From the sequence record NC_052656.1: a stretch of 64,000 bases of DNA, one strand, 5' to 3'. The position numbers were made by a program, and so were the translations under genes. Source of the DNA: Escherichia phage anhysbys. Under the pieces are notes generated by a model that ran no database searches, was not told the DNA's origin, and was given only the letters and a program-made list of their open reading frames with translations. This document shows positions 11,167 to 23,807 of this stretch, in pieces (the first letter of the stretch is position 1; each line of letters opens with the position of its first letter).

Positions 11167-11212
11167 TACAAAAGTGAAAGTTGAAAACCAAAATTTAAAG
11201 TTTAGGAAAATT
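11167..11212 (+). repeat. AT-rich ~45-bp direct repeat, copy 1
   Basis: TTACAAAAGTGAAAGTTGAAAACCAAAATTTAAAGTTTAGGAAAATT. Confidence 0.6.
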
Positions 11213-11303
11213 ATCTTAAAATGTTAGATACAAAACAAAACTCAAAAGTCAAGGAAAATTTTAAAAATTTTGCGCGCCCACAGTATTTAAAGTTTTTTTG
11301 CTT

Positions 11304-11350
11304 TTACAAAAATGAAAGTACAAAAGCAAAATTTAAAGTTTACAAAAATT
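11304..11350 (+). repeat. AT-rich ~45-bp direct repeat, copy 2
   Basis: TTACAAAAATGAAAGTACAAAAGCAAAATTTAAAGTTTACAAAAATT. Confidence 0.6.
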
Positions 11351-11389
11351 TATGCAGATGGGGATGAGAAGAGTTCTCATGTGGAAATG

Positions 11390-11470
11390 CAAATGATAAT
11401 GATTCGCATTTAGGTTTATAAATGAGAATGATTCTTATTTAATAAAGTAAATGATAATCATTCTCATTTA
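11390..11470 (+). promoter_or_regulatory. three tandem Fur-box-like 21-bp palindromic sites
   Basis: AAATGATAATGATTCGCATTT / AAATGAGAATGATTCTTATTT / AAATGATAATCATTCTCATTT, about 30 bp apart. Confidence 0.5.
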
Positions 11471-11727
11471 GAGAATGACGCGCAGGGGCGGTGTTTGTCT
11501 CGCGCTCCCGTGTCCCCTCGCCATGTAATAAGAATAACAGATCCAACCAGGAAAGCAAGCGATTATTTTATCTTTACATTTCTTTACGAATATATAGCGC
11601 CCAGCCTACCGGCGATCAACCTTCCAACCAGTGCCCCTGGTATGTTAGCCCCGCCTTTACGCCGTGGGGTGGCGCTTCCTCTTCTGTATGTAAAACAGTA
11701 TAAGCCCTATCCCTGGGCTTGTCAAGA

Positions 11728-11994
11728 TTATTTTTTGTTTTCTTGCCAGGTCAGGACACCTAGCCAAAAATGAATATCACCTTTTCCCCAATGTGGTATA
11801 TTGCTTTCTTTCCCACCTTCACGCGCCCAGGTAAAACCGCCCGTGTAACTTTGTAATTGATAACTATCCTCGACCTTATAATCTGATAGGTTGAGAACGG
11901 TTTCAACCTTTAAGCCCGTTGCGCTTGCTACCTGGTGTACCGTGCCGCCTTGCCAGCCCAATGAGTGCATAAGGTGTAATGTAGTAGTTGTCAT
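11728..11994 (-). CDS. hypothetical protein in GC-rich island (doubtful)
   Basis: ORF track 88 aa; atypical GC-rich composition; isolated on minus strand. Confidence 0.25.
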   Translation of the reverse strand: MTTTTLHLMHSLGWQGGTVHQVASATGLKVETVLNLSDYKVEDSYQLQSYTGGFTWAREGGKESNIPHWGKGDIHFWLGVLTWQENKK

Positions 11995-12104
11995 GGTATC
12001 GCCCTTTCTTTGTTGTGCGCCCTGGTTGGCGCGGTAGAAAGATGATAGCCTTTTCCTTTATATATAGCAAGCAAAAAGAAAATAAAAAAGATTGAAAAAG
12101 TGGT

Positions 12105-12132
12105 TGACGTTCCTCACCTGGTAGCGTAGTAT
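12105..12132 (+). promoter_or_regulatory. candidate promoter for first gene of plus array
   Basis: TTGACG-16-TAGTAT; ~130 nt leader to ATG 12268. Confidence 0.4.
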
Positions 12133-12267
12133 TCATCTTGTCGAGGGGGGCGCGGCACAACGACAATAAACAACAGGAGGGCGCAATGTAGGACGGGCAA
12201 AGGTGAGGATCTCCATAATCCACCGTCAACCAACAAAAAACATCATTCATCACCTGGAGTTAAAATC

Positions 12268-12465
12268 ATGGCAACATTGCACATAGTAGCGAAAGCAGGA
12301 CAAATCAGCGTCGTGGTAAACGGTTTTACTGAGTTCAGTCATCCCCAGGATGATCATGAAACGGTTTTATCTTTCATTGATTCCCTGTTAGAAATGGGAG
12401 TCATTACAGAAGACCAGCACGCTACAAAGTGCAAGCGCGTTAATCAAATTGCAGGGATAGAATAA
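12268..12465 (+). CDS. hypothetical protein
   Basis: ORF track 65 aa; GGAG RBS; first gene of plus array. Confidence 0.5.
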   Translation: MATLHIVAKAGQISVVVNGFTEFSHPQDDHETVLSFIDSLLEMGVITEDQHATKCKRVNQIAGIE

Positions 12466-12471
12466 AAAGTA

Positions 12472-12530
12472 TTGACAACAAACAACAACCTGATAAGATG
12501 TATCACATAGGGCGGGAAGTGGTTTCCCGC
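12472..12530 (+). promoter_or_regulatory. promoter + 5' stem-loop cassette (PeSL-like)
   Basis: TTGACA, -10 TAAGAT, then GCGGGAA-GTGGT-TTCCCGC hairpin before gene 12556. Confidence 0.6.
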
Positions 12531-12555
12531 TCGTAACAGAAGAGAGATTATCATC

Positions 12556-12828
12556 ATGGCATCATATAGCGCAACAATGATCGTAGCTGGCACAACTGGT
12601 AAACCTATGAGCGGTGGCGGATCTTTCGCTAATATCAACATTGACGGGCGTTTATCCCTGGACGCAGCGATCACCGTGGCGCGGGAAACATTTAAGAAAG
12701 AATGTAAATTCAATAAACAAGATTATCTCGGTTTCGCTATTGAAAAAACCGCGCGTTTTGTTGATTATAAAAGCCCAAAAATGGTTGATACTACACTAAA
12801 AGCGCAAGATGTAGCGTTTTTGCTTTAA
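12556..12828 (+). CDS. hypothetical protein
   Basis: ORF track 90 aa; preceded by promoter/stem-loop cassette. Confidence 0.6.
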   Translation: MASYSATMIVAGTTGKPMSGGGSFANINIDGRLSLDAAITVARETFKKECKFNKQDYLGFAIEKTARFVDYKSPKMVDTTLKAQDVAFLL

Positions 12829-12831
12829 GGC

Positions 12832-12886
12832 TTGACATTAACGAATAATTTGTTAATATGTTACATAAAGCGGGAATAGTTCCCGC
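12832..12886 (+). promoter_or_regulatory. promoter + 5' stem-loop cassette
   Basis: TTGACA, TTAATAT, GCGGGAA-TAG-TTCCCGC. Confidence 0.6.
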
Positions 12887-12904
12887 TATTTGTAAGGTGG
12901 TAGA

Positions 12905-13162
12905 ATGTTTTACATCAAATTAAAAGGTCACGTGATCGCGTTCAAAGATAACGCTTTTTACAGATTAGCAAAATATGCGTTAATACATCCCCACTATGTT
13001 TATATAAGGGGGCGTGATGAAATAAATATCTTTGATCAAACAACATGCGAGAACATCGAGATCCGCAAGGTTGGCGTACGTGATTATCGTACATCTTTCT
13101 ACCCTTGCAAGGATTCAGCAAGTCTTTTTAAAGTATGCCAATTGTTGAAAAAAGGTGGTTAA
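12905..13162 (+). CDS. hypothetical protein
   Basis: ORF track 85 aa; cassette upstream. Confidence 0.55.
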   Translation: MFYIKLKGHVIAFKDNAFYRLAKYALIHPHYVYIRGRDEINIFDQTTCENIEIRKVGVRDYRTSFYPCKDSASLFKVCQLLKKGG

Positions 13163-13721
13163 TATGGGCCGCGAATATGTGATCCAGTCTTGGGTAAAAC
13201 ATGAAGCAGATGATCCGCGCATCGTTCCCGATCATCTTATCGATGAATCCACGGGATATAGCGGTGAGCAAATAGGTAACAGATTAGCACGTAGTAACGG
13301 CAACGTAAAAGCGCGTTATGTGCGCCCTGGTTGGCTGGCAAATGGTAACGCTGATTTATCCAGTGCGGAAGATGCGAGCGACGGCGCGAAAGATAATCCT
13401 TTGTACAAAATTGATCCGGCTTTTCGTGTCCTGGATGAATACCCCAGCAAGATAGCGGCGCTTGATGAAGCTCTGGAAAGTAAGCGCATCACCTGGACCG
13501 CTTACAACATGGCAAAAAACGTACTTGATGGTAAATTGATTCAAGCCGAAAGAAAATTAGCCAAAATTGCAGCCATAGCCCAGGAGGAAGACGAGGAGAC
13601 AACGGAAGAGGAAGAGTACGAAGAGATCCCGCCGTTGTTGTGTGTTGATGCTTTTCCTGATTATCAGCCGACAGAGGAAGAAAAAAGGATCGCACTAGAA
13701 AACTTTGAAAATAGTCTTTGA
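13155..13721 (+). CDS. hypothetical protein with acidic C-terminus
   Basis: ORF track 188 aa. Confidence 0.6.
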   Translation: MVNMGREYVIQSWVKHEADDPRIVPDHLIDESTGYSGEQIGNRLARSNGNVKARYVRPGWLANGNADLSSAEDASDGAKDNPLYKIDPAFRVLDEYPSKIAALDEALESKRITWTAYNMAKNVLDGKLIQAERKLAKIAAIAQEEDEETTEEEEYEEIPPLLCVDAFPDYQPTEEEKRIALENFENSL

Positions 13722-13775
13722 CATATCGCCGCCACTGGCATAATATTTACCACGTAGGGCGGCAATGGTGCCGCT
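13718..13775 (+). promoter_or_regulatory. promoter + 5' stem-loop cassette
   Basis: TTGACA, CATAAT, GGCGGCA-ATGG-TGCCGC. Confidence 0.6.
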
Positions 13776-13783
13776 CATAGTGA

Positions 13784-13879
13784 AATTATGCAAGAGGTTT
13801 ACAATGATTAATAAAGAAAATAGCTTGACGGTTGGAACGATTAACGCTATCATTTTCGCCGTTCCATTTTGGGTTGTAG
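13784..13879 (+). CDS. tiny hydrophobic protein (~31 aa)
   Basis: Own translation MINKENSLTVGTINAIIFAVPFWVVVAAIIF; sits between two cassettes. Confidence 0.4.
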
Positions 13880-13887
13880 TAGCGGCT

Positions 13888-13949
13888 ATTATTTTCTAAA
13901 AAATATTCTTGACAACGTTTTTTAATCTGATAAGATGTATCACATAGGG
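13888..13949 (+). promoter_or_regulatory. promoter + 5' stem-loop cassette
   Basis: TTGACA, TAAGAT, GGCGGCGGAA-TAC-TTCCCCGCC. Confidence 0.6.
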
Positions 13950-13989
13950 CGGCGGAATACTTCCCCGCCAAAACAAAAAGGGTAACACA

Positions 13990-14352
13990 ATGAGCAAGCA
14001 AATTAATACTATCATGTTTAATCTGGTATCTTTCCGCGACGATATGAAAAATTTACCACGTGAAACGGTTGATATTCATGTTTCAGCTTATCGCGCCCTT
14101 ATTGACATGTTACCGCTAAAACGTGATCAATATGCCGCTAACACGATGCTTAATGCTATGCTTAAAAAGATGATTCAAACGGATCTCACCCTAGCGTATG
14201 AGTATCAAGGGCGCTTATATGCAACTTATAACAAGGCGGTACCTGGTCTGGGAAGTACCGAAGAGTTGCACGGCTTAAACCTGGATCAAAACACTTGGGA
14301 TAGTATGCGCCGCGTTATGGTATGGGCCGAAAGCGGTAAAATTTACGAATAA
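13990..14352 (+). CDS. hypothetical protein
   Basis: ORF track 120 aa; cassette upstream. Confidence 0.6.
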   Translation: MSKQINTIMFNLVSFRDDMKNLPRETVDIHVSAYRALIDMLPLKRDQYAANTMLNAMLKKMIQTDLTLAYEYQGRLYATYNKAVPGLGSTEELHGLNLDQNTWDSMRRVMVWAESGKIYE

Positions 14353-14358
14353 AAACGG

Positions 14359-14417
14359 TTGACACTGTTTAAACTTCTGGTATAGTTTACCACATAGGGC
14401 GGGAAGTGGTTTCCCGC
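14359..14417 (+). promoter_or_regulatory. promoter + 5' stem-loop cassette
   Basis: TTGACA, TATAGT, GCGGGAA-GTGGT-TTCCCGC. Confidence 0.6.
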
Positions 14418-14440
14418 CAACAATGAAAAAGGTTATCATC

Positions 14441-14806
14441 ATGGCTATTAATATTAATGTTTCCGCTTATGCTACCCTGGCTGCCACGGCTAAAATTGAA
14501 TTGTCCAGCATTGAGGCGGTGCACATTAGCGCCCGTCGCTGGTTTCAACAGTCTTACGGTAACACATATTTTTCTTTAATGGTTGACGTTGAGATCGGCG
14601 GTAAACTGATCGAGGTGGTTAACGTTCCGTTTCAATATGGCTATGGTGATCATTTTGATACCGTCGCCCTGGAAGAATTTAGCAAGGTTATTAATATGGA
14701 AGGTAAAGAGTTTTCACGCGGCGCGTATCTTTCCCGTTTTTGCCGTGACAATGGGATCACTGTATACAGTCATGCGAGCGATGTTAAACGTAAAAAAGAT
14801 TTATAA
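14441..14806 (+). CDS. hypothetical protein
   Basis: Track frame 14423-14806; start refined to MAININ (pattern ..ATCATCATGGC shared with other array genes). Confidence 0.6.
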   Translation: MAININVSAYATLAATAKIELSSIEAVHISARRWFQQSYGNTYFSLMVDVEIGGKLIEVVNVPFQYGYGDHFDTVALEEFSKVINMEGKEFSRGAYLSRFCRDNGITVYSHASDVKRKKDL

Positions 14807-14813
14807 AAAGCAT

Positions 14814-14872
14814 TGACAGCACGAATAAAAAGAGTAAACTGTATTACATAGAGAGCGGGAACACTTCCCGCC
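14814..14872 (+). promoter_or_regulatory. promoter + 5' stem-loop cassette
   Basis: TTGACA, TAAACT, GCGGGAA-CAC-TTCCCGC. Confidence 0.6.
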
Positions 14873-14895
14873 TCACTGAAAAAGAGAGAAAAATC

Positions 14896-15135
14896 ATGGC
14901 TAAATCTAAAATGTACAACGGTCACAAAAACAAAACTCATTGGAATGTAAACCTTTGGATTAATAACGATGAATCGTTATACCGGTTGGCCCAAGATTTT
15001 ATTAACGCTAATGCTAATCGTAATGATGCGGCGCGGGATATGATGCTTTTTCTGGAACAAACTGGACAAGATAAAACGCCAGACGGTTTCAAATATAGCA
15101 CTACTGCGATCCGTGCCGCGATGGTTGGAATGTAA
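14896..15135 (+). CDS. hypothetical protein
   Basis: ORF track 79 aa; cassette upstream. Confidence 0.6.
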   Translation: MAKSKMYNGHKNKTHWNVNLWINNDESLYRLAQDFINANANRNDAARDMMLFLEQTGQDKTPDGFKYSTTAIRAAMVGM

Positions 15136-15144
15136 TAAAAACAG

Positions 15145-15203
15145 TTGACAACGTTTAAAATTAGTGTAAGATGTATCACATAGGGCGGGAAGTGGTTTCC
15201 CGC
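15145..15203 (+). promoter_or_regulatory. promoter + 5' stem-loop cassette
   Basis: TTGACA, TAAGAT, GCGGGAA-GTGGT-TTCCCGC (same as 12472 copy). Confidence 0.6.
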
Positions 15204-15225
15204 CAAAACAGAGAGATTAAAGATT

Positions 15226-15453
15226 ATGGCTATCAATATTGTTCGCGTATCTGGCACCGTTGGCACTTCCCAGGTCATTGCCGTTGTAACAAACAAAAAG
15301 ATTAATGATGTATGTGAGATCTTGAATAAGTGGGCTGTTGCTAATTTTGGGGAATATGCAAGCGTTGAGTACATCGAATCCTACCAGGTGCCAACCATCA
15401 GCCTAACCGATCTCAACGTTGATCGCCTGTTATGCCTGGACGAATTAATCTGA
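15226..15453 (+). CDS. hypothetical protein
   Basis: ORF track 75 aa; cassette upstream. Confidence 0.6.
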   Translation: MAINIVRVSGTVGTSQVIAVVTNKKINDVCEILNKWAVANFGEYASVEYIESYQVPTISLTDLNVDRLLCLDELI

Positions 15454-15462
15454 AAAAGATTG

Positions 15463-15519
15463 TTGACACCGGAAAGAAAAAGAGTAAACTGTATTACGTA
15501 GGGCGGCAATGGTGCCGCT
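15463..15519 (+). promoter_or_regulatory. promoter + 5' stem-loop cassette
   Basis: TTGACA, TAAACT, GGCGGCA-ATGG-TGCCGC. Confidence 0.6.
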
Positions 15520-15543
15520 CACAACAGAAGAGAGATTATTACG

Positions 15544-15759
15544 ATGGCCAATATCCGCACACTGTTAAAAAATGCAAGTCAAGTTTTATTTTCAGATGAC
15601 GAGTATTTCAATAAAGACATTACAGGCGTAAAAAATCTTAAAGATGTAAAGGATGTGATAGGTATTCGCGGATCTTTACGTAAAGGTGACTACTACGGCA
15701 ATAAAGTACAATATAAATTAAATCAGTCTTATGATTTTACTTTGACAATTATTTCATAA
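15544..15759 (+). CDS. hypothetical protein
   Basis: ORF track 71 aa; cassette upstream. Confidence 0.55.
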   Translation: MANIRTLLKNASQVLFSDDEYFNKDITGVKNLKDVKDVIGIRGSLRKGDYYGNKVQYKLNQSYDFTLTIIS

Positions 15760-15764
15760 AACCG

Positions 15765-15827
15765 CTTGCAATCTTAATAAAATAAAGTAAACTGTATTAC
15801 ATCAAGGCGGCGGAATGGTCCACCGCC
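15765..15827 (+). promoter_or_regulatory. promoter + 5' stem-loop cassette
   Basis: CTTGCA, TAAACT, GGCGGCGGA-ATGG-TCCACCGCC. Confidence 0.55.
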
Positions 15828-15851
15828 TAACAAAGAGAAGAGGAAAACACC

Positions 15852-16019
15852 ATGATCACTTTCGCTACCCGTGAAGCCGCTCGCAACGTTGCCCGTAAAG
15901 TTAACGCCGCCAACCTGGGCGCTACGTTTAAAGCACCTGTAAAAGATGAATCAGGAAAATGGATCTTCCCTGGTCTGCGTCACGCTGATAAGCTAGGCAC
16001 TTTAAGCCTTAAAAAATAA
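15852..16019 (+). CDS. small hypothetical protein (~55 aa)
   Basis: Own translation MITFATREAARNVARKVNAANLG...; cassette upstream; shares 5' leader and first codons with 16094 gene. Confidence 0.45.
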   Translation: MITFATREAARNVARKVNAANLGATFKAPVKDESGKWIFPGLRHADKLGTLSLKK

Positions 16020-16022
16020 TCG

Positions 16023-16059
16023 TTGACTTTTCGTTATAGCGCCTTATAATGGGCGCTAT
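16023..16059 (+). promoter_or_regulatory. near-consensus sigma70 promoter with -10 inside a palindrome
   Basis: TTGACT-16-TATAAT; inverted repeat ATAGCGCC-TTATAATG-GGCGCTAT encloses -10. Confidence 0.6.
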
Positions 16060-16093
16060 AGAGAAGAGAAACCACTACTGACAAGGAAACACC

Positions 16094-16315
16094 ATGATCA
16101 CTTTCGCTATTGTCGCCGTTGTTGCTGGTCAAGTTTACGTAAACGATACATTCACCACAGAAGACAAGGCCGCAGGAGATATAACCGCCGTTTACAACGA
16201 GTGCAAGGCAGTAGAAAGGATGTTAGCGCCTTGTATGTTAATGAGTGAACGCCAGGACGGGATAACAGTGTTTACTAACATTGAGACAGGGTACCAAATG
16301 GTAGTAACAAAATAA
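16094..16315 (+). CDS. hypothetical protein
   Basis: ORF track 73 aa; TTGACT-16-TATAAT promoter upstream. Confidence 0.55.
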   Translation: MITFAIVAVVAGQVYVNDTFTTEDKAAGDITAVYNECKAVERMLAPCMLMSERQDGITVFTNIETGYQMVVTK

Positions 16316-16318
16316 AGC

Positions 16319-16375
16319 TTGACACGGATTTAATTTTCAGTAAACTGTTACACGTAGGGCGGGAATAGTTCCCGC
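16319..16375 (+). promoter_or_regulatory. promoter + 5' stem-loop cassette
   Basis: TTGACA, TAAACT, GCGGGAA-TAG-TTCCCGC. Confidence 0.6.
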
Positions 16376-16393
16376 TAAAAAGAGAGAAAAACC

Positions 16394-16747
16394 ATGAAAG
16401 CACAAAATGCAATTAAAGAGTACATCCTTGCCGCTATCGATTTTAATGATTACGGTATTACAACCGAAAAAGAGAAGATCGCGGAATTGATGCGCCGTTT
16501 TAATTCCGAGTACTGGTACCCTGATAACCAATCACGTTTTAATTATAGTATTGTTAAAGCACTTGCATCATGGTTACAAGGTTTGCCATCAGATATTAAT
16601 ATCGCTTTCGAATATTGGGAAATTGATCGCTTGTTAACATCCTGGGGATACATTAAAGAGAATAGCAGCGATGATAAAATCCAACGAGAAAGGGAAAATT
16701 ATTGGCTTTATATTGCAGGCGTGATCCTTGCTTGCTCTTATGAATGA
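16394..16747 (+). CDS. hypothetical protein
   Basis: ORF track 117 aa; cassette upstream. Confidence 0.6.
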   Translation: MKAQNAIKEYILAAIDFNDYGITTEKEKIAELMRRFNSEYWYPDNQSRFNYSIVKALASWLQGLPSDINIAFEYWEIDRLLTSWGYIKENSSDDKIQRERENYWLYIAGVILACSYE

Positions 16748-16753
16748 TAAACC

Positions 16754-16807
16754 TTGACAATTTTACAAAACAGTTTAAATTAATAATATAGCGGCAATGG
16801 TGCCGCT
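16754..16807 (+). promoter_or_regulatory. promoter + 5' stem-loop cassette
   Basis: TTGACA, TAATAA/AATATA, GCGGCA-ATGG-TGCCGC. Confidence 0.55.
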
Positions 16808-16826
16808 CATATAAAGAGGAAACAAA

Positions 16827-16973
16827 ATGAATACATCTAATCGCGCAGAAAAAATCCAATCTTCCAAGATCCGCAAGGCCTGGAACGAGGAAGTGATCCG
16901 CAAAGGCGACAAGCGCAATAAAACAAAGCGCGGGAAGAGTGACAAATATAATTGGATGGATTTAGAGGATTAA
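16827..16973 (+). CDS. small basic protein (~48 aa)
   Basis: Own translation MNTSNRAEKIQSSKIRKAWNEEVIRKGDKRNKTKRGK...; cassette upstream, terminator downstream. Confidence 0.45.
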   Translation: MNTSNRAEKIQSSKIRKAWNEEVIRKGDKRNKTKRGKSDKYNWMDLED

Positions 16974-16979
16974 CATAAC

Positions 16980-17007
16980 AAGGGCGCACCAAGCGCCCTT
17001 TCTTTTT
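16980..17007 (+). terminator. rho-independent terminator
   Basis: AAGGGCGC-ACCA-AGCGCCCTT + TCTTTTT. Confidence 0.7.
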
Positions 17008-17028
17008 ACATGTAGAGGATAAACAAAG

Positions 17029-17214
17029 ATGACTTTAAGCGAGCTTAAAACAGCCTACAACGCAACGTTAAAAATAGCCGTGCGTTACCGTGATGCGTAC
17101 GGTTTTATCGCGCAGGGCGTGATCCTGGGCTTTTCTGACGATGGTTTGATCTATGTTGATGCACATTATAACAAGGTAAAACCTGAAAACGTCATTAGCA
17201 TAAAATATCTTTAA
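17029..17214 (+). CDS. hypothetical protein
   Basis: ORF track 61 aa. Confidence 0.5.
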   Translation: MTLSELKTAYNATLKIAVRYRDAYGFIAQGVILGFSDDGLIYVDAHYNKVKPENVISIKYL

Positions 17215-17220
17215 AAGTGG

Positions 17221-17280
17221 TTGACACCATAACCGGACCTGTTAAACTGTATTACATCAGGCGGGGAATAGTTCCCCACC
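17221..17280 (+). promoter_or_regulatory. promoter + 5' stem-loop cassette
   Basis: TTGACA, TAAACT, GCGGGGAA-TAG-TTCCCCAC. Confidence 0.6.
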
Positions 17281-17299
17281 ATACAAAAAGGTAAATATT

Positions 17300-17506
17300 A
17301 TGATCACCGCAAAACAAGAGAAAATCATTATCGACGTTGCAGCCGTTGCCGCTATTGCTATTATTGGATCTTATTATGATACCCGTTTCCCGTCGGCTAT
17401 GCATGAGATCGCCGCCGTTGCATCAGTTGGCGTACTGTTTTACGTTGGTAAACGCTATTTATCACCAATGATTAACAAGCTGACACCGTGGAAAAATAAA
17501 GGTTGA
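17300..17506 (+). CDS. small membrane protein
   Basis: ORF track 68 aa; hydrophobic IIIDVAAVAAIAIIGSYY / AAVASVGVLFYVG. Confidence 0.55.
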   Translation: MITAKQEKIIIDVAAVAAIAIIGSYYDTRFPSAMHEIAAVASVGVLFYVGKRYLSPMINKLTPWKNKG

Positions 17507-17557
17507 TCCTGTTTTATATTGTGTTATAGTTATCGTGTAGGGCGGCAATGGTGCCGC
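17503..17557 (+). promoter_or_regulatory. promoter + 5' stem-loop cassette
   Basis: TTGATC, TATAGT, GGCGGCA-ATGG-TGCCGC. Confidence 0.55.
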
Positions 17558-17577
17558 GCCCCTTTGAGGATGCAATC

Positions 17578-17862
17578 ATGAGTAAAGCTAACACCGTGCT
17601 AATGTTTTCCCTGATTAATGATCCCGCTTACTTGTCCAACATGACGCAGGAGGGTAACACATTAACGGCAACATTCACCAATAAGCTTGACCGGGTGATC
17701 ATCATCTCACTGAAAACAGTTAGTAAAGGCTTTTACTCGTTAGCTTATCATTGGATCACCGATACCGATGAGACAAGCCAGGACTATAGCGCCCCTTTCC
17801 CTGAATCAATGGCACGGGAGATCATCGCCGCCGTTGTAAATGATGGTTTGTTTACTGCATAA
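17578..17862 (+). CDS. hypothetical protein
   Basis: Track frame; start refined to MSKANTVLMF downstream of cassette. Confidence 0.6.
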   Translation: MSKANTVLMFSLINDPAYLSNMTQEGNTLTATFTNKLDRVIIISLKTVSKGFYSLAYHWITDTDETSQDYSAPFPESMAREIIAAVVNDGLFTA

Positions 17863-17880
17863 AATAATTTAGAAAAAGGC

Positions 17881-17937
17881 TTGCAATCATTTTGAGATAG
17901 TGTATATTTAATTCATAGGGCGGCGGGAATAGTTCCC
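17881..17937 (+). promoter_or_regulatory. promoter + 5' stem-loop cassette
   Basis: TTGCAA, TATATT, GGGAA-TAG-TTCCC. Confidence 0.55.
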
Positions 17938-17960
17938 AAAGCAAACGAGAGGATTACACG

Positions 17961-18080
17961 ATGAGCAAGTACACAGTAGAATACACGGTAGAAAATCCGG
18001 CAGTATCCGAAGGTAAAAAGATGACATTTGCCATCAGTATAATCGCTTTCGTTGTCACTATCTTATCAATCATCTTATAA
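17961..18080 (+). CDS. tiny membrane protein (~39 aa)
   Basis: Own translation MSKYTVEYTVENPAVSEGKKMTFAISIIAFVVTILSIIL; cassette upstream. Confidence 0.4.
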   Translation: MSKYTVEYTVENPAVSEGKKMTFAISIIAFVVTILSIIL

Positions 18081-18090
18081 GGTGCACACC

Positions 18091-18252
18091 ATGAAAACAA
18101 CAGATATTATCAAAGAGATCGCCCATGCCGCTGGCGTTGAGATCGAGGAAGTGATCGCGCTCAATCTTACAGAAAACGATCTGCGCAACTATGAAGCGGA
18201 AAGCGTGAAAGCAAGCGGCGCGGTCCTGGTATATGATCCGGCTAACAAGTAA
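18091..18252 (+). CDS. hypothetical protein
   Basis: Track frame 18052-18252; start refined to MKTTDIIKE after AAGGTG. Confidence 0.5.
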   Translation: MKTTDIIKEIAHAAGVEIEEVIALNLTENDLRNYEAESVKASGAVLVYDPANK

Positions 18253-18261
18253 GGGGATAAC

Positions 18262-18372
18262 ATGAATCCGAAAGATATGCAAGCATGGAAAGGGTACGAC
18301 GATCTAAGCGCCTTGCGCAATAAGTCAAGCCGTAACCTTAGACGGTTGGAAGCAAAGAAAAAGAAAAAATAG
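18262..18372 (+). CDS. tiny basic protein (~36 aa)
   Basis: Own translation MNPKDMQAWKGYDDLSALRNKSSRNLRRLEAKKKKK; AAGGGGA RBS. Confidence 0.35.
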   Translation: MNPKDMQAWKGYDDLSALRNKSSRNLRRLEAKKKKK

Positions 18373-18373
18373 T

Positions 18374-18430
18374 TTGACAAGTCCGCCTAGTCTGATAATA
18401 TGTATCTTGTAGGGCGGCAATGGTGCCGCT
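18374..18430 (+). promoter_or_regulatory. promoter + 5' stem-loop cassette
   Basis: TTGACA, TAATAT, GGCGGCA-ATGG-TGCCGC. Confidence 0.6.
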
Positions 18431-18450
18431 CACAAGAAGAGAGAAAAATC

Positions 18451-18735
18451 ATGAAAATCACAAAAAGCCTAACTAATTATGCAGCACGTCGCGGATTATG
18501 TTTAACCGTTGAAAACTTAGGGAAAGAAGACTTTTTGTGTTTTTGGGAGCTTGAAAATGATTGCGAGTGGATGTTTTCTTATTCTATCTGCGAAGATCAA
18601 AACGGTTGTTTGTTAACCTGGCGCGGTAATATCTATTTACCGGAAGAAATTAAAGAAGAGTTACCAGGTACGATCATGACAGAGAGACAGCTTAAGGAAA
18701 TGATTAATTTTGTAGGGCAAAACATTAAAAAATAA
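18451..18735 (+). CDS. hypothetical protein
   Basis: Track frame; start refined to MKITKSL downstream of cassette. Confidence 0.6.
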   Translation: MKITKSLTNYAARRGLCLTVENLGKEDFLCFWELENDCEWMFSYSICEDQNGCLLTWRGNIYLPEEIKEELPGTIMTERQLKEMINFVGQNIKK

Positions 18736-18736
18736 T

Positions 18737-18797
18737 TTGACAGCACGCAAACAACGTAGTAAAGTTTACCACATAGGGCGGCGGAATGGTCCACCGC
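18737..18797 (+). promoter_or_regulatory. promoter + 5' stem-loop cassette
   Basis: TTGACA, TAAAGT, GGCGGCGGA-ATGG-TCCACCGC. Confidence 0.55.
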
Positions 18798-18820
18798 TCA
18801 CAACAGAAGAGAAACAAATC

Positions 18821-18991
18821 ATGATCCCGACTATGTTTTATGTATCGCGCAAAGGTCACAATATTTTTTGGTCTGAAGATTTAAATGAAGCTATGACGTT
18901 TGCCCGTGATCGTGTTGCTATCGGTGGCGTTAACATCACCGTAACCGATGAAAATGGCATTGAATACTATAACGGCGACGATGAAGAATAA
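18821..18991 (+). CDS. hypothetical protein
   Basis: Track frame; start refined to MIPTMFYVSRKG downstream of cassette. Confidence 0.5.
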   Translation: MIPTMFYVSRKGHNIFWSEDLNEAMTFARDRVAIGGVNITVTDENGIEYYNGDDEE

Positions 18992-19038
18992 TTAATGAGG
19001 CGGGGGAGTATTCCCCGCCGTCAATAAAGAGGTAAATC

Positions 19039-19308
19039 ATGAAAATATCATTGGACGTTGCAATCAAGGCCATCGAATCCGGTTACATCCTGGTAAAAGA
19101 TGATAAGGCTAAAATAGTGCATCATGTTAACAAGGAAACAGGCGAAAGCATGATCACATATAAAGCCGCCTACTTTCTCCAATCAGTAGCAGATCCGCGC
19201 GTACAACGCCAGGTTATGGCGGCTATTGCTAAAAAATTATGTGCTTTACAGGGTACAAGTTTTAACGAGATCGCCCCGTGTTTTGAGTGGTCAAGCTTGA
19301 AAAAATAA
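19039..19308 (+). CDS. hypothetical protein
   Basis: ORF track 89 aa; GC hairpin upstream. Confidence 0.55.
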   Translation: MKISLDVAIKAIESGYILVKDDKAKIVHHVNKETGESMITYKAAYFLQSVADPRVQRQVMAAIAKKLCALQGTSFNEIAPCFEWSSLKK

Positions 19309-19309
19309 T

Positions 19310-19370
19310 TTGACAACAATTATAAATCGGGTAGAATGTATTTCGTAGGGCGGGGCAATAAAGCAACGCC
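19310..19370 (+). promoter_or_regulatory. promoter + degenerate 5' stem-loop cassette
   Basis: TTGACA-16-TAGAAT; GGGCG...CGCCC weaker stem. Confidence 0.5.
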
Positions 19371-19389
19371 CATTAATGAGGGTAGAATC

Positions 19390-19494
19390 ATGTTAGAGAA
19401 AATTTTCACGGTTGTAATAGTGGGCCTGGCGTTATCGGTTGGAGTGGTTGCAACTATGGCTAACATGATCCTATCTTCCCACGGTATCGGTTAA
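19390..19494 (+). CDS. tiny membrane protein (~34 aa)
   Basis: Own translation MLEKIFTVVIVGLALSVGVVATMANMILSSHGIG; cassette upstream. Confidence 0.35.
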   Translation: MLEKIFTVVIVGLALSVGVVATMANMILSSHGIG

Positions 19495-19504
19495 GGTGAA
19501 ACAA

Positions 19505-19720
19505 ATGATCACGAACAAAACAGGCAAAACGGAATTTTTACGCGGCTTACAAGTTGGTAAGCCTGAGATCTGGCATTGCACGAAGTCCGCGCATAATGAA
19601 ATGAAAGATTTTACCGCTACTTTACAACGTGTTAAAATATCTATCACACAGAAAAAAGCCTTGTTAGTAGTAGAAAACGAGATCCCGCAAACTATTATTA
19701 TTGTCGAGCGTACAGCATGA
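19505..19720 (+). CDS. hypothetical protein
   Basis: Track frame 19496-19720 (GTG) ; ATG at 19505 preferred. Confidence 0.5.
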   Translation: MITNKTGKTEFLRGLQVGKPEIWHCTKSAHNEMKDFTATLQRVKISITQKKALLVVENEIPQTIIIVERTA

Positions 19721-20103
19721 AAACAGAAATCATTATTGAAATCATCAACGGCTATAAAGAAGCCTTTATTTTTGCTGAATCAGCAAGGGATCATGAAGGT
19801 AATTTTATTGATAACTTAGACGATTATGATTTTTCTCCTAGCGCGGATCAACGGATCGCACAGGATGTAACAGCCTTTATTAATGCTAATCTTGCCGCTA
19901 TCTCTGAGGCAATGAGCGACGGCGCAACAGCCAACCAGATCGGGAATGATTTACATTTTACCCGTAACGGTCACGGCGTAGGCTTTTGGGATCGCCCTGA
20001 AATATACACCACTAACACGGCGAACCGCCTAACCAATGCAGCTAAGTTTATGCCGAACGTGTCGGCTTACGTTGGTGAAGATAATTTTATTTATATTGAA
20101 TAA
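19717..20103 (+). CDS. hypothetical protein
   Basis: ORF track 128 aa; ATGA overlap. Confidence 0.6.
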   Translation: MKTEIIIEIINGYKEAFIFAESARDHEGNFIDNLDDYDFSPSADQRIAQDVTAFINANLAAISEAMSDGATANQIGNDLHFTRNGHGVGFWDRPEIYTTNTANRLTNAAKFMPNVSAYVGEDNFIYIE

Positions 20104-20109
20104 AAAGTA

Positions 20110-20166
20110 TTGACACAGATCGCCAGTGTGCTAATATTTACCACGTAGGGCGGCAATGGTGCCGCT
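20110..20166 (+). promoter_or_regulatory. promoter + 5' stem-loop cassette
   Basis: TTGACA-16-TAATAT, GGCGGCA-ATGG-TGCCGC. Confidence 0.6.
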
Positions 20167-20187
20167 CCCCGAAAAAGGTAAAACATT

Positions 20188-20379
20188 ATGAAAACTATCA
20201 GCTACCTGGAATCGAATAACATGTTTTTTGCGCCCGTTGATGAAATCATCGAAGCATTAAACAACGAGGAAGGGATCAATGGTTTATCTTATAGCCAGCT
20301 TTTAGGAATGGTTGCAGCAAATGAGGAGCTTGCTTACTATGTTGAAAATTTTGATGAAGCTGTAATCTTTACAAAATAA
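20188..20379 (+). CDS. hypothetical acidic protein
   Basis: ORF track 63 aa; cassette upstream. Confidence 0.55.
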   Translation: MKTISYLESNNMFFAPVDEIIEALNNEEGINGLSYSQLLGMVAANEELAYYVENFDEAVIFTK

Positions 20380-20382
20380 TCC

Positions 20383-20439
20383 TTGATCTAATCTCTCAGA
20401 TAACTTATATTTAATGCGTAGGGCGGCAATGGTGCCGCC
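20383..20439 (+). promoter_or_regulatory. promoter + 5' stem-loop cassette
   Basis: TTGATC, TATATT, GGCGGCA-ATGG-TGCCGCC. Confidence 0.55.
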
Positions 20440-20457
20440 GATAATGAGGAAAACAAA

Positions 20458-20757
20458 ATGGAAACTATCGCTATTGTTACCGTAGAAAAACTGGTTGTTG
20501 GTGATGTATTCGCGTTAATGGTGCCTAACAGCAGCAAGCTGGGCGCTTATGAAGTAATGGATCATAAAAATGAATCATTTGGCGACGGTTGCACAATGGC
20601 GGTAAAATCTTTAAAGGATGGAATCATCCGCCAGGCTAACTGGCACAAAGGGAATCAAGTCGGTTTAATATCAGCTAATTTCTTGCCAGAAGAGCAAACA
20701 TTAGATCAACTATCAGGCGGTAAGACGTTAGCCGAACTACTGGAAACAGCGATCTAA
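20458..20757 (+). CDS. hypothetical protein
   Basis: ORF track 99 aa; cassette upstream. Confidence 0.6.
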   Translation: METIAIVTVEKLVVGDVFALMVPNSSKLGAYEVMDHKNESFGDGCTMAVKSLKDGIIRQANWHKGNQVGLISANFLPEEQTLDQLSGGKTLAELLETAI

Positions 20758-20810
20758 TCGACAAGGGGCGGCAACGCCCCCATTAAACGCAATAGGAAGA
20801 GGATAGACAC

Positions 20811-21095
20811 ATGAAAAAGATGATCGCAGTAGTTGCCCTGGTTGTTGGTATTAACGCGCCTGTAATGGCGAAAGAGTTGCCAGAATCCATCACGTTAACC
20901 GATATTAACGCAGTGAATCGGATCGGTGTTAATTATCGCCTATGCCTTGCCGCTAAAACTTTCCAGGACGGCACAACAGAGTACTACGGATTCGAGGGTA
21001 TCCGCTGCGGTGAGCTTTCACGCGACCTTAAGGAAGATCCAGACCTTGAGGCCATACCGATGACCGTAAACGGTAAAGCCCACGTAAACCGCTAA
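20811..21095 (+). CDS. putative secreted protein
   Basis: ORF track 94 aa; signal-peptide-like MKKMIAVVALVVGINAPVMA. Confidence 0.6.
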   Translation: MKKMIAVVALVVGINAPVMAKELPESITLTDINAVNRIGVNYRLCLAAKTFQDGTTEYYGFEGIRCGELSRDLKEDPDLEAIPMTVNGKAHVNR

Positions 21096-21097
21096 CC

Positions 21098-21232
21098 ATG
21101 AGAAAGGTAATCATCACAATGGGGATCGTAGTAGCAACGCTGGCGCTTATCCCTTTCATGGTTGAATATGTGCTGATTAATGTTGTCCTGGTAGTCAGTG
21201 ACCTATTGGAAACGGTTGGCACCTGGTTTTAA
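21098..21232 (+). CDS. tiny membrane protein (~44 aa)
   Basis: Own translation MRKVIITMGIVVATLALIPFMVEYVLINVVLVVSDLLETVGTWF. Confidence 0.4.
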   Translation: MRKVIITMGIVVATLALIPFMVEYVLINVVLVVSDLLETVGTWF

Positions 21233-21405
21233 GATAATAAATAGGGCTTGCAATAGTCCTATTTTTTGTTATACTTATTGAACGGGCGGCACCTGGGAGC
21301 AGGGGAAGATAATCACCGGAAGACCCCGCTATATATTGATAACTAACGCCTATCAAACAACAAAACATCAAAGGAACAAACTATCAAATCTTTACAATTC
21401 TACCT

Positions 21406-21467
21406 ATTGACACCGGATCACGCTTACATTATTATTTATCACGTAGGGCGAGCAATACAGCAAGCCC
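21406..21467 (+). promoter_or_regulatory. promoter + degenerate 5' stem-loop cassette
   Basis: TTGACA, ATTATT, GGGCGAGCAA...GCAAGCCC imperfect stem. Confidence 0.45.
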
Positions 21468-21484: not shown

Positions 21485-21853
21485 ATGAGCAAATCAGCAA
21501 TTAAAGCAGTTGAAAAAGCGCAAGAAGTGATCGCAACGTCTACCACTGGCGCAAAGGTTAATCTGATCGGTTATCTGACAGATGAAACTATCCGTAAAAA
21601 TTGGCGTAATGCTGATTTACTGGCTTGCTTATTGATTAATAGTGTCGCTAATGCTTTCCAGTGTGAAACAGCCGAGAGCCTGGAGGAAAACTTGTTTGAT
21701 AATATGGATCAAGCCATTGAAACCTATATACAATCAAACCTGGATAGCTGGAACAGTAAAACATGGCCAGACAGTTTACGCGATACAACTGATCAACTGA
21801 TCCGCCTTGCCGTGATGGTTGAACGCGATAACGTTTACAACAGCACAAAGTAA
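21485..21853 (+). CDS. hypothetical protein
   Basis: Track frame; start refined to MSKSAIKAVEKAQ after AAGAGGAAAAG; terminator downstream. Confidence 0.6.
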   Translation: MSKSAIKAVEKAQEVIATSTTGAKVNLIGYLTDETIRKNWRNADLLACLLINSVANAFQCETAESLEENLFDNMDQAIETYIQSNLDSWNSKTWPDSLRDTTDQLIRLAVMVERDNVYNSTK

Positions 21854-21861
21854 GATTATAC

Positions 21862-21890
21862 AAGGGGCGCACCAAGCGCCCTTTCTTTTT
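21862..21890 (+). terminator. rho-independent terminator (same sequence as 16980 copy)
   Basis: AAGGGGCGC-ACCA-AGCGCCCTT + TCTTTTT at end of plus array. Confidence 0.7.
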
Positions 21891-22097
21891 GCCCGAACAA
21901 TGTTGATAGCTTTCGCCTATGAAAAACCGACACAGAACAAAATTGAATAAATCGCGGTATCGAGCTAATCAACCATTAAACGAATAACCATACCTCCCAG
22001 GGTAACAGGCTGTTAGAGAGCCATTTATAGCGGTTAAAATCGATCAACAACCAACAACAAACCATCAAAAACACCCTTTTACCTCCTTTCTAGTGCA

Positions 22098-22539
22098 ATG
22101 ATAACCATTATCATCTACCCATGATTATCTATGCAATATAAGCGCATAATTATAATGTTGATAATAGTTCGCAACAACTAACCAACAAACAACATAAAAC
22201 AAGAAGCAAACTAATCATAATCAAAGGAATAATAGCAAGATGATTGATAACGACAAACAATCAAACCATGATGAATACTAAGCAAGATAACGATAACACG
22301 ACAAAACAACCAACTAACGAACAATAACAAACGAAACCATTAAAATAATAACTATTGCCATAATAGTGACTGAATGAAATCATTACAAAACGAATCATTC
22401 CCAGGATCATCATTAGCACGCTATGCCGGACACATAGCGAGCTAATAATAAGCCAACTACACCCCAACAATCATAACCATCGGTGATGGTTATTTCTTGT
22501 TACTGCGTAGCTTGCAATAATTGCAAGCGTAATTACGCT
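22098..22539. repeat. cluster of perfect palindromes in ORF-free region
   Basis: ATGATAACCATTATCAT (22098), ATAACCATCGGTGATGGTTAT (22474), GCTTGCAATAATTGCAAGC (22510), AGCGTAATTACGCT (22526). Confidence 0.5.
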
Positions 22540-22732
22540 TACACTTATTGCGCTGGCTTATTATTAGCATTATATGTAATTACCAAGATCATAACATTAA
22601 CGCAATAACAATAATCATTGTAATGGTTACAATATGAAATCATTGGCAAGATGAATAATTGCACGTAGCAACATGAGCGAATAGCGACAGGTTGCATAGT
22701 GTGCACATAATAGAATAAAAGTCAATAATTTT

Positions 22733-22855
22733 GGGGGCGAAATGTTACCGCCACAGGCGGGAATGTTGAGCACTAAGAAAAGAGATAAACCTTAATCATG
22801 GGGGCGTAAATATCCGCAGGATTGCCAACGGCGATCCGGTAGGATGTTGAGCATC
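22733..22855 (+). repeat. two tandem related units beginning TGGGGGCG and ending GATGTTGAGCA
   Basis: Unit 1 ~22733-22775, unit 2 ~22799-22855; internal GC stems. Confidence 0.4.
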
Positions 22856-22923
22856 TTCTCTTAAACGTAAATAAAATCAGAAAATTCTTGATTTATTTTA
22901 GTTTTTATGTTAATAAACGTTTA

Positions 22924-22950
22924 AATAATAATCATTCTCATATGAATAAT
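22924..22950 (+). promoter_or_regulatory. Fur-box-like site
   Basis: AATAATAATCATTCTCATATGAATAAT. Confidence 0.4.
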
Positions 22951-23101
22951 AGTCTGCTTGTCATGAGCGGGATTAGTTGACATTGTTCCGTCATATGATG
23001 AGGTTGCCAACCTATTGATAAATAAGTGTTTGTGTGATTTATAATCAAGTGGCCCACCTTGTCGCTATGTTGGCATGAGCCTTGCATAAGTCATTGAATA
23101 C

Positions 23102-23130
23102 GAATGATAATTATTCTCATTCGCATGATA
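23102..23130 (+). promoter_or_regulatory. Fur-box-like site
   Basis: GAATGATAATTATTCTCATTCGCATGATA. Confidence 0.4.
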
Positions 23131-23462
23131 TTTGGGAATTGTCGCTGCGTGGACCTGACGGCCCGAAAATTCGCGTTAAGCACTTCTTACGTATGCGCCA
23201 TGATTTTTGCCATATGATATTGATTCTATTAGATATTCTTGCCATGATTGCCATGAAACAGGGTGTCCCGAAATAATCTCTCCCCGTAGATATTTTGGGT
23301 TACTTTTTATACAAGAGTGGGGTGTCAAAAATAATCGATATATATGGGATAATTGATAGGAATCCCCTATGGTAATTCGATTGTAATTGCCGAAGATTGA
23401 TCGTATGATGTTGGTGATTGATGATTGCCATGAAAGATGGCTAACGATGAGAGGAGATTGTC

Positions 23463-23807
23463 ATGCAAGAGAGTAAAAATGTTCCGTTAAGTAGTTTACG
23501 TCTAATGAAGTTTTACAAAGCTTGGCTTGCTGGTGAGGTAGAAGGTCACACAACGAGTGGTTTGTGCATATGTTTGATTAAGTATGTGGAGGGAACATAT
23601 CCTGATGAACTGTTACCTCGTCTACAACAAGAGATGAAATCCCAGTTTATTGGTGCAGGACTAGATTACAATTTTCCGTTTAATGAAGGTGGTTATGAGG
23701 AATACACCTTCGAACATAAAAAACATATTTGCCATAAAAACAAACATCGTATACAATGGGTGTTAGATAGAATTCAGGATTATGAAGGAGAGAAAAATGA
23801 CAAATAA
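23463..23807 (+). CDS. FY-WL/GLC/WVKDR family protein, paralog 1
   Basis: ORF track 114 aa; family motifs FYKAWL, SGLCICL, QFIGAGLDYNFPFN, RIQWVLDRI. Confidence 0.65.
   Translation: MQESKNVPLSSLRLMKFYKAWLAGEVEGHTTSGLCICLIKYVEGTYPDELLPRLQQEMKSQFIGAGLDYNFPFNEGGYEEYTFEHKKHICHKNKHRIQWVLDRIQDYEGEKNDK

Follow-up and report, generated by a model that had tools for sequence, protein, structure and literature searches.

The concatemer junction of phages T7 and T3 combines a short terminal repeat with adjacent packaging signals and, inside the left end, host-type early promoters, and a hairpin intermediate has been proposed for duplication of the repeat. The cos site of phage lambda joins a nicking site, cosN, to cosB, in which terminase-binding R sites are arranged around an IHF bend. 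Phage T5 has a non-coding terminal 'injection stop' region that is rich in repeats, palindromes and host-factor boxes of the DnaA type, and its terminal repeats are about 10 kb long and coding. Here we analyze positions 21854–23462 of a 64,000-nt stretch of Escherichia phage anhysbys (NC_052656.1; the whole stretch is called the window below), a region between two dense gene arrays that holds no recognizable gene. Our analysis suggests, with a probability of roughly 0.88, that this region is the genome-end (concatemer) junction of a Phapecoctavirus, with a terminal repeat of 328 bp bordered by two related putative cut sites.

The locus resembles the T7 and T3 junction in layout. As in those phages, a repeat of a few hundred base pairs with predicted site-specific cuts at its borders lies between two stretches of non-coding DNA, the left end is followed by promoter-like sites, and an inverted repeat lies directly before the repeat on the right-end side. 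Unlike them, the phage is a 150-kb myovirus, promoters for a T7-type RNA polymerase are absent from the region, the two cut sites are similar to one another, and IHF-like and Fur-like sites lie within the repeat. The logic of lambda cosB, a cleavage site beside an array of protein sites flanking IHF, would be matched here by a Fur-like box A, an IHF-type site, a box B and the right cut. The differences from lambda are the terminal repeat in place of 12-nt cohesive ends and the Fur-like character of the flanking boxes, which are left out of chromosomal islands that copy the signal. With T5, the locus shares a long gene-free stretch near the genome end with repeats, palindromes and sites like those of host proteins, and it differs in lacking ~10-kb coding repeats and DnaA-type boxes; we know of no sequence relationship between the two regions.

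Genome ends and the terminal repeat

Positions 21854–23462 are matched by 72 phage records at 80–97% identity, essentially all of them from phAPEC8-like myoviruses, and by these matches the source of the window is a phAPEC8-like coliphage of Phapecoctavirus, subfamily Stephanstirmvirinae. Raising the sensitivity of the search added matches of ~72% identity over the first ~670 nt, to phi92-like phages (Justusliebigvirus) and to some Klebsiella phages. Nearly all of the 72 records lack annotation across the stretch, and one automatic annotation of the homologous stretch calls seven tiny 'hypothetical proteins'. Records labelled as Campylobacter, Acinetobacter, Pseudomonas and 'Dompiswa' phages are 92–97% identical to this coliphage region, and because of this identity their host labels look doubtful.

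The records of Schickermooser, WPEC4 and Mt1B1_P17 have exact end duplications of 329, 328 and 328 bp, respectively. On the window these correspond to 22850–23177/8; each begins at the base homologous to 22850, and they are 96–99% identical to the window sequence. In phi92 (NC_023693), the features DTR-L and DTR-R, 343 bp long, are annotated at the homologous, syntenic and alignable place; the genes on either side are the same as in the window, and the ~1.8-kb non-coding junction around the repeat can be aligned with the window over separate conserved islands. Additional GenBank records begin or stop within the homologous region. Korf et al. gave the terminal repeat of Schickermooser (vB_EcoM_Schickermooser) as 328 bp (PMC6563267), a 342-bp terminal repeat was obtained with PhageTerm in a phi92 relative (PMC12210895), and direct terminal repeats are stated to end every Stephanstirmvirinae genome (PMC12695924); two Phapecoctavirus papers are silent on the subject of termini. 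Because the end duplications of relatives and the annotated phi92 repeats fall at the homologous place, we read the region as the junction of two genome ends. A preliminary description of this DNA had offered a packaging hub as one of several roles, and that option is now strongly supported, since the records of relatives place the genome ends, the terminal repeat and the two cut sites within the region. Terminal repeats being already known for Stephanstirmvirinae, this core identity is not new.

The shared features extend into the repeat. Homologous and syntenic in position, the repeats of phi92, Schickermooser and the window have the boundary motifs TGTTG/AGC.. and CGCGTTA/AGCAC (the slash marks the repeat boundary) and the internal landmarks TCTTGATTT, Fur-like boxes, an IHF consensus, TAAGTCATTGAAT and TGATATTTGRG. 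The repeat of phi92 differs from that of the window in length (343 versus 328/329 bp), and its interior is poorly conserved. The window differs from both phages in carrying a duplicated left-cut module and a right end that is CA-rich, not CTAAC-rich.

In replicating DNA, the order would be the last early operon, a terminator, ~1 kb of non-coding right end (21885–22849), the left cut, the direct terminal repeat (22850–23177, 328 bp, or 329 bp if the end is 23178), the right cut, a 285-nt left-end leader (23178–23462) and the first genes. Virion DNA, by transfer from the relatives, would be linear, starting at 22850 and ending at 23177/8 one genome length on, so that the 328 bp would be found at both virion ends. 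At the start of the Klebsiella phage FKP3 record, the Fur-like boxes belonging to the repeat lie in a ~500-bp segment that is present twice, 500 bp apart, which is probably an assembly or linearization artefact at the terminal repeat.

Two related boundary motifs and chromosomal copies of one

We compared 16 junctions from Phapecoctavirus, the phiWec group, Justusliebigvirus and Klebsiella phages. The motif GTTR/AGCA is common to both repeat boundaries and conserved in all of these lineages. The left boundary of the window reads ..GGATGTTG/AGCATCTTCTCTTAAACG and the right boundary ..TTCGCGTTA/AGCACTTCTTACG; in phi92, the counterparts are TTTGTTG/AGCC.. and ATCGCGTTA/AGCACC... From the last left motif, GTTG/AGC, to CGCGTTA/AGC the spacing is 329, 332 or 343–344 bp, constant within each group (15 of 16 phages).

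The tandem TGGGGGCG units pointed out in the preliminary description, at 22733 and 22800 and thus 67 bp apart, turned out to be two copies of a left-cut module on the plus strand. The non-terminal copy 1 (22733–22774) consists of GGGGGCG, the hairpin CCGCC-ACA-GGCGG and AATGTTG/AGCA; in the terminal copy 2 (22800–22853), the cut would fall between 22849 and 22850, at GGATGTTG/AGCATCTTCTCTTAAACG. Copy number ranges from one (phAPEC8, Schickermooser) through two (the window, WPEC4) to three (nepoznato), and in WPEC4 the repeat begins after the last copy. Ahead of the left motif come GGGGGCG and a short inverted repeat whose sequence differs among phages and whose self-complementarity is always kept, the forms being CCGCC-ACA-GGCGG, ATCGC-GTA-GCGAT, CCGTTACG-CGTAACGG and a longer one in the window. 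Upstream lies a variable spacer (22574–22732) with indels and two alternative haplotypes. Within it (22660–22715 and the counterpart in relatives), the two sharply different haplotypes circulate among otherwise near-identical phages, which suggests recombination at the genome end; one haplotype in relatives adds a Fur-like box (GAGGATGATTATCATCATT).

The right-cut module (23126–23206, plus strand) consists of TGATATTTGGG, a 35-nt G-rich spacer and AAAATTCGCGTTA/AGCACTTCTTACGTATGCGCC, with the predicted cut at 23177/8. Its elements TGATATTTGRG and TCGCGTTR/AGC are invariant in 15 phage junctions and in an Escherichia coli chromosomal island, and the module is a probable terminase recognition and cleavage signal. 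We propose that terminase would recognize two directly oriented sites sharing GTTR/AGCAnCTTCT, the left marked by the preceding GGGGGCG and hairpin-forming palindrome and the right by TGATATTTGRG and the G-rich spacer. Offset cutting and strand-displacement synthesis would then duplicate the repeat, as proposed for T7-type phages.

Most of the at least 72 related GenBank records were opened at arbitrary points, with this stretch left blank; the motifs GTTG/AGCA and CGCGTTA/AGCA allow the true ends and the repeat to be placed from sequence alone. The comparison also gives a compact definition of a putative packaging signal in a large group of therapeutic-candidate phages, comprising two related cut sites, a co-varying hairpin, an IHF-type site and two Fur-like boxes. 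We found no description of the cut-site anatomy, the Fur/IHF architecture or the islands that copy the module in the searchable literature, and these features, above all the islands, appear to be undescribed so far.

Satellites that copy the packaging site of a helper include P4, with the cos site of P2, and cos-type PICIs; PLE is a satellite of the lytic myovirus ICP1. When we searched the repeat against 5426 complete E. coli genomes, 243 had a match of 52–81 bp across the right boundary (window 23126–23206), and related island sequence was present in 751 of the 5426, at tRNA-Leu or tRNA-Thr. In strain F5505-C1 (O25:H16), whose island is of the leuX type, a 12.5-kb element carries the module between 44-bp repeats that correspond to the 3′ end of tRNA-Leu. 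This element encodes a tyrosine integrase (PF00589) and a serine recombinase, together with an O-like replication initiator (phrog_270, E about 1e-8), a Dit-like tail protein and a protein with a weak likeness to capsid proteins. The island loci compared were L021 (NZ_CP024257.1 4520497–4538548, with the module at 9001–9079 of the locus), L022, L023, L024 and L025. Hidden Markov model scans of 11 island proteins (~14–17 are annotated) recognized no terminase or portal.

The island module starts exactly at TGATATTTG and matches the Phapecoctavirus spacer at all 27 positions compared by eye. The tRNA-Thr islands, of which those of the thrW type in FORC_042 and AH25 are examples, carry a phi92-type module, 93–96% identical over 46 bp, which again starts exactly at TGATATTTG, whatever lies upstream. 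A 613-residue tape-measure-like island protein (phrog_16051, E = 2.7e-33) is matched, by tblastn against 50,697 phage records, in Stephanstirmvirinae-type phages only (132 records; 28–31% identity among the matches listed). The capsid-like protein had no tblastn match in the phage collection, and the island proteins have no homolog in the 64-kb window.

Two copies of the module, each specific to a helper type and each in elements with no recognized terminase, are best explained as packaging-signal mimicry. Such mimicry would support a function of the module in the phage, adding a second line to the packaging role. It would also mark the islands, which carry the module and have no recognizable terminase, as candidate satellites of virulent phAPEC8- or phi92-type phages. 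A broader proposal, to which we give slightly less than an even chance, is that the ~80-bp module (TGATATTTGRG, 33–36 nt, CGCGTTR/AGC) may be a portable packaging signal, of which ~12.5-kb islands, widespread in E. coli, copy helper-specific versions for packaging by virulent 150-kb myoviruses. The islands would then form an undescribed satellite family with a lytic terminal-repeat helper, and packaging, or transcription at the termini, would be coupled through the Fur and IHF sites of the repeat to the iron status of the host and to bending of the DNA.

In likeness to P4, PICIs and PLE, the E. coli islands have an integrase, attachment repeats at a tRNA gene, an initiator-like gene, no recognizable terminase and a copy of a phage cut-site module matched to the presumed helper type. 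They differ in that the presumed helper is a virulent 150-kb terminal-repeat phage and in encoding a tape-measure homolog and a Dit-like protein. If the islands use the module, satellites of virulent phages with a broad host range would be common in E. coli. This would have consequences for phage-therapy outcomes and gene transfer, and the species would provide a model comparable to PLE and ICP1. A literature search on satellites of these phages returned nothing relevant. An exact-match scan of IMG/VR gave 15 matches to island modules, none for the leuX type, with numeric genome ids that suggest prophage calls in isolate genomes, and no sign of particles or transfer of islands.

A pattern scan of species-representative genomes yielded three stray contigs, two with island fragments in metagenome-assembled genomes and one with a phage fragment. 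The former are 'Bacillota' contigs with E. coli island fragments and the latter is a 'Lysobacteraceae' contig with a Phapecoctavirus fragment (L041–L043); all look like binning or contamination errors. In all island variants, the hairpin AGACGG.GGC.CGTCT is followed after ~25 nt by GAGGTTG/AGCCTG, ~170 bp from the tRNA. This GAGGTTG/AGCC (L021, 9925; L023, 4196; L024, 4915; L025, 12015) is a possible analog of the phage left-cut site, although the motif alone is too short for significance.

Putative regulatory sites in the repeat and leader

A subfamily-wide alignment gives the order of landmarks in the repeat as TCTTGATTT, near its left end, Fur-like box A, the IHF match, TAAGTCATTGAAT, box B, TGATATTTGRG, the G-rich spacer, which differs between phage types, and AAAATCGCGTTA/AGCAC. 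The predicted IHF site (WATCAANNNNTTR; 23008–23020, minus strand) occupies the center of the repeat. Its consensus, which has only seven matches across the window, is kept in 16 of 16 phages and lies 171–175 bp before the right cut in the 15 with a located right-cut motif. The N4 positions vary freely (CCTA, CCCC, ACCA, GCCA, GTAG, ACTA) and the consensus positions are fixed, which is the pattern expected of a real IHF site.

The Fur-box-like sites of the preliminary description are well above chance. At a threshold of at least 14 of 19 positions of the Fur consensus (GATAATGATAATCATTATC), the region holds 5 distinct sites against 0.25 expected, a ~20-fold excess, and none of 500 dinucleotide-preserving shuffles reached 5. 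Matches start at 22094 and 23106 (15/19 each), at 22921 and 23100 (14/19 each) and, elsewhere in the window, at 11447 (16/19). Three Fur-box-like palindromes are placed in the junction. The right-end box (22097–22115, TGATAAC-C-ATTATCA, 15/19) is kept at an offset of ~+245 in all 16 phages, and phi92-type phages have a second at ~+303. Box A (22924–22942, TAATAAT-C-ATTCTCA) lies in the repeat, and phi92 has at its place a perfect TGATAAT-C-ATTATCA, which scores 17/19. Box B (23103–23121, TGATAAT-T-ATTCTCA) has a core, AATGATAATTATTCTCAT, that is identical in phi92. The box offsets recur in all lineages compared, and scores reach 17/19 in phi92 and phiWec.

Compared with the E. coli Fur box (7-1-7 form TGATAATnATTATCA), the sites are similar in score (14–16/19 in the window, 17/19 in relatives) and, as at strongly Fur-regulated promoters, palindromic and clustered. 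They differ in lying in the repeat and non-coding DNA of a virulent phage, not demonstrably over a promoter, and in a half-site that prefers ATTCTCA. The weak promoter-like sites (9/12) that overlap Fur-like boxes, for example on the minus strand at 23138–23110, are not conserved between lineages. The central IHF-type bend and the two flanking palindromes would probably shape the DNA or control terminal promoters. Fur boxes in the repeat of a lytic phage would connect phage development to the sensing of iron, which would not have been expected; a literature search on Fur boxes in phage genomes found nothing relevant.

Several points weigh against our reading of the junction and its sites. The end coordinates for this isolate are transferred from relatives that are 91–97% identical, and the repeat length is ambiguous between 328 and 329 bp. 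The left- and right-cut sequences alone fold no better than shuffles as single-stranded DNA (z = −2.6, −1.2 and +0.35). The boxes of Klebsiella phages, TGAGAAT-G-ATTCTCA, depart symmetrically from the Fur consensus, and such changes would suit a dimeric protein of the phage, or a hairpin, no less than Fur. The E. coli islands omit box B, which places the Fur-like boxes outside the minimal signal. Visual inspection and a scan of the repeat gave no convincing promoter and none conserved between lineages. Together, the absence of a conserved overlapping promoter, the symmetric Klebsiella changes and the loss of box B from the islands argue against simple Fur operators, and we regard host Fur on the one hand and a phage protein or hairpin on the other as about evenly balanced.

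The alternative that the palindromes are operators of a phage-encoded dimeric DNA-binding protein, or mere hairpins, with the likeness to Fur boxes a by-product of AT-rich palindromes, is nearly as credible as not. The half-site varies symmetrically (TGATAAT versus TGAGAAT), the perfect palindrome of the Klebsiella phages departs from the Fur consensus, and one box doubles as a terminator-like hairpin. Further copies occur in another non-coding gap, as three tandem boxes ~29 bp apart. These observations have to be set against Fur consensus matches of 16/19 in the window, 17/19 with a perfect 7-1-7 core in phi92 and the ~20-fold enrichment over shuffles; no phage repressor candidate was identified, though no search for one was made.

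The second gap (10923–11727) is unannotated, lies between convergent genes and is conserved in 143 phage records. At ~800 nt, it also shows that the preliminary description overstated its case in putting all other spacers below 100 nt. Its palindromes span 11389–11471 (best 16/19), and a near-consensus minus-strand promoter (TTGACA, 17 nt, TATACT; 11725–11697) reads through a GC-rich stretch towards them. The RNA fold of 11470–11730 is not significant (z = −0.2).

On the other side of the right cut, the left-end leader (23178–23462, plus strand) precedes the first gene, with a ribosome-binding site before the ATG at 23463. Sigma-70-like sites are predicted on the plus strand at 23248–23277, 23306–23335 and 23381–23409, the first being the best (10/12). 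Both repeated motifs reported in the preliminary description fall here in two copies each, GATTGCCATGAAA at 23244 and 23421 and GGTGTC..AAATAATC at 23262–23278 and 23321–23336. The leader also contains a small plus-strand hairpin, ATAGG..CCTAT (23357–23371), and a block conserved with phi92 (23300–23375). These features fit a set of promoters and operators for the first genes. A regulatory hub, the other role proposed with packaging, is plausible in view of the promoter-like sites of the leader, the conserved Fur-like boxes and the conserved IHF consensus.

The non-coding right end and other readings of the region

The right end opens behind an intrinsic terminator (21862–21884, plus strand; GGGGCGC..GCGCCCC followed by a T-run) that closes the upstream early-gene array. 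It has a 9-bp stem with 6 GC pairs, is annotated in phAPEC8 and Schickermooser and is conserved in phi92. The conserved non-coding segment that follows (21894–22573, plus strand) is 91–100% identical among eight close relatives. Against phiWec, its identity is 74–100% per 40-nt bin and mostly at least 85%, whereas the phiWec terminal repeat reaches just 46–91%; 22214–22333 is 93–100% identical to phiWec phages. Conserved islands are shared with phi92, for example ATCGCGGTATCGAGCTAATCAA at 21951–21972.

The CA-richness of the top strand noted in the preliminary description is borne out: 22040–22470 is 45.7% A, 23.0% C, 10.7% G and 20.6% T, compared with 19.6% G in the window, with a GC skew of −0.22 to −0.30 across the CA-rich stretch. 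The GC content of the right-end non-coding region is 30–35%. Within the G-depleted stretch (22044–22332, plus strand) lie three CA-rich units of ~30 nt (CAACAACCAAC.AACAAAC...AAAAC), at 22055, 22183 and 22311 and thus spaced by exactly 128 bp. This sequence is not alignable with phi92, although every lineage retains a depletion of G, with C exceeding it, on this strand.

Perfect palindromes such as GCTTGCAATAATTGCAAGC and AAGCGTAATTACGCTT are present as described, and three hairpins cluster at 22405–22550, which folds at z = −7.4 (0 of 200 shuffles as good). In an eight-sequence alignment, the hairpins are 96.8% paired, versus 23–46% with the partners slid. The covariance analysis across related phages that the preliminary description had suggested was run. 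In H1 (22412–22446, ATTAGC-A-CGCTATG [CCGGACA] CATAGCG-A-GCTAAT), 13 pairs are 100% paired in eight distinct sequences, with three two-sided changes, no one-sided change and an invariant loop. H2 (22466–22501, plus strand) consists of ATAACCATC-GGT-GATGGTTAT with an outer stem, followed by TTTCTTGTT; it is terminator-like and has one compensatory change, C-G to T-A, in phiWec188. H3 (22505–22538) is a hairpin or palindrome, GCTTGCAA-TAA-TTGCAAGC, whose arms are invariant across lineages while the center alone varies.

The right end may serve as a zone for Rho loading or insulation, as a set of protein-binding repeats or as the template of a transcript. Because it follows a strong terminator and its sense strand is C-rich and G-poor, it is probably a Rho-loading or insulating zone that would keep early transcription from the packaging site. 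A further role that depends on the sequence itself is suggested by the conserved hairpins and CA-rich repeats and implied by the conservation at sequence level.

A replication origin had been listed in the preliminary description, and we consider it unlikely. Replication would start in the AT-rich, repeat-bearing 21894–22733, where the CA-rich repeats would serve as iterons and the three hairpins would signal priming or unwinding. The exact 128-bp spacing, the very high conservation even against phiWec phages, the low GC content and the stability of the hairpin cluster as single-stranded DNA all suit this idea, and the cluster loosely recalls single-strand initiation signals. However, DnaA boxes are not enriched (one near-match against 0.6 expected), a search with relaxed DnaA boxes found none, and GATC is not enriched. 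The cumulative GC skew shows a local dip flanked by rises and does not switch at genome scale; the CA-rich units are absent from the conservation with phi92-type phages, where G depletion alone survives; and there is no adjacent initiator gene. An origin could coexist with the packaging role and would not replace it.

The proposal of a locus for non-coding RNAs fared no better, and we judge it equally improbable. It would require a CA-rich, G-poor rightward transcript of ~330–600 nt through 22040–22500, ending at H2 and acting as a sponge or regulator, for example of Hfq or Rho. The T-rich tail after H2 on the plus strand, the G-poor sense strand kept across lineages, the strong conservation of 22214–22333 with phiWec phages and the compensatory changes in H1 and H2 are compatible with such an RNA. 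Yet those changes are equally expected of DNA hairpins or dimeric-protein sites, and since a DNA-level role explains the hairpins equally well they do not favor an RNA. Nor is there a convincing or conserved upstream promoter (best 9/12; 20 sites against 13.3 ± 4.2 expected), and a strong terminator stands just upstream. Rfam 15 gave no match across the window at the gathering score and, at E-values up to 1, chance-level matches only on 21800–23500 and 10800–12400; ARAGORN found no tRNA or tmRNA.

The preliminary description had seen no plausible ORF (open reading frame) here, and the closer count agrees. At 1609 nt, the region is the longest gap without an ORF of at least 80 codons in the window (the runner-up is 1019 nt). 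Its largest minus-strand ORFs (69 and 53 codons) are interrupted by stops or frameshifts in close relatives, and a 64-codon plus-strand ORF is intact in close Phapecoctavirus relatives, broken in phiWec phages and straddles the DNA end. That the region is instead a remnant of genes lost in this lineage is almost certainly wrong: apart from a few ORFs of 50–69 codons and the genes called by some automatic annotations, the minus-strand frames are broken, the 64-codon frame crosses the DNA end, conservation sits in discrete motifs and palindromes and not in reading frames, and the locus is non-coding and syntenic in all lineages compared, phi92 included. The condition that the preliminary description had set for decay, intact protein-coding genes here in related phages, was thus checked and did not hold, which excludes gene decay. 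A 13-codon ORF (MIDNDKQSNHDEY; 22240–22281, plus strand) has AAGGAA 11 nt 5′ of it, and 10 of 11 relatives keep it intact. That it is a gene is improbable, because the flanking DNA is equally conserved (93–100%) and the ORF is absent from phi92-type phages.

To the left of the gene-free stretch, and nowhere to its right, 12508–21444 (plus strand) carries fifteen near-consensus host-type promoters of one design: an A-tract, TTGACA, 17 nt, TAnnAT, 6–7 nt and (A/G)TAGGGCGG, with which a conserved GC hairpin begins. The elements that the phAPEC8 annotation names 'PHIRE promoters' are 5′ leader hairpins of this kind.

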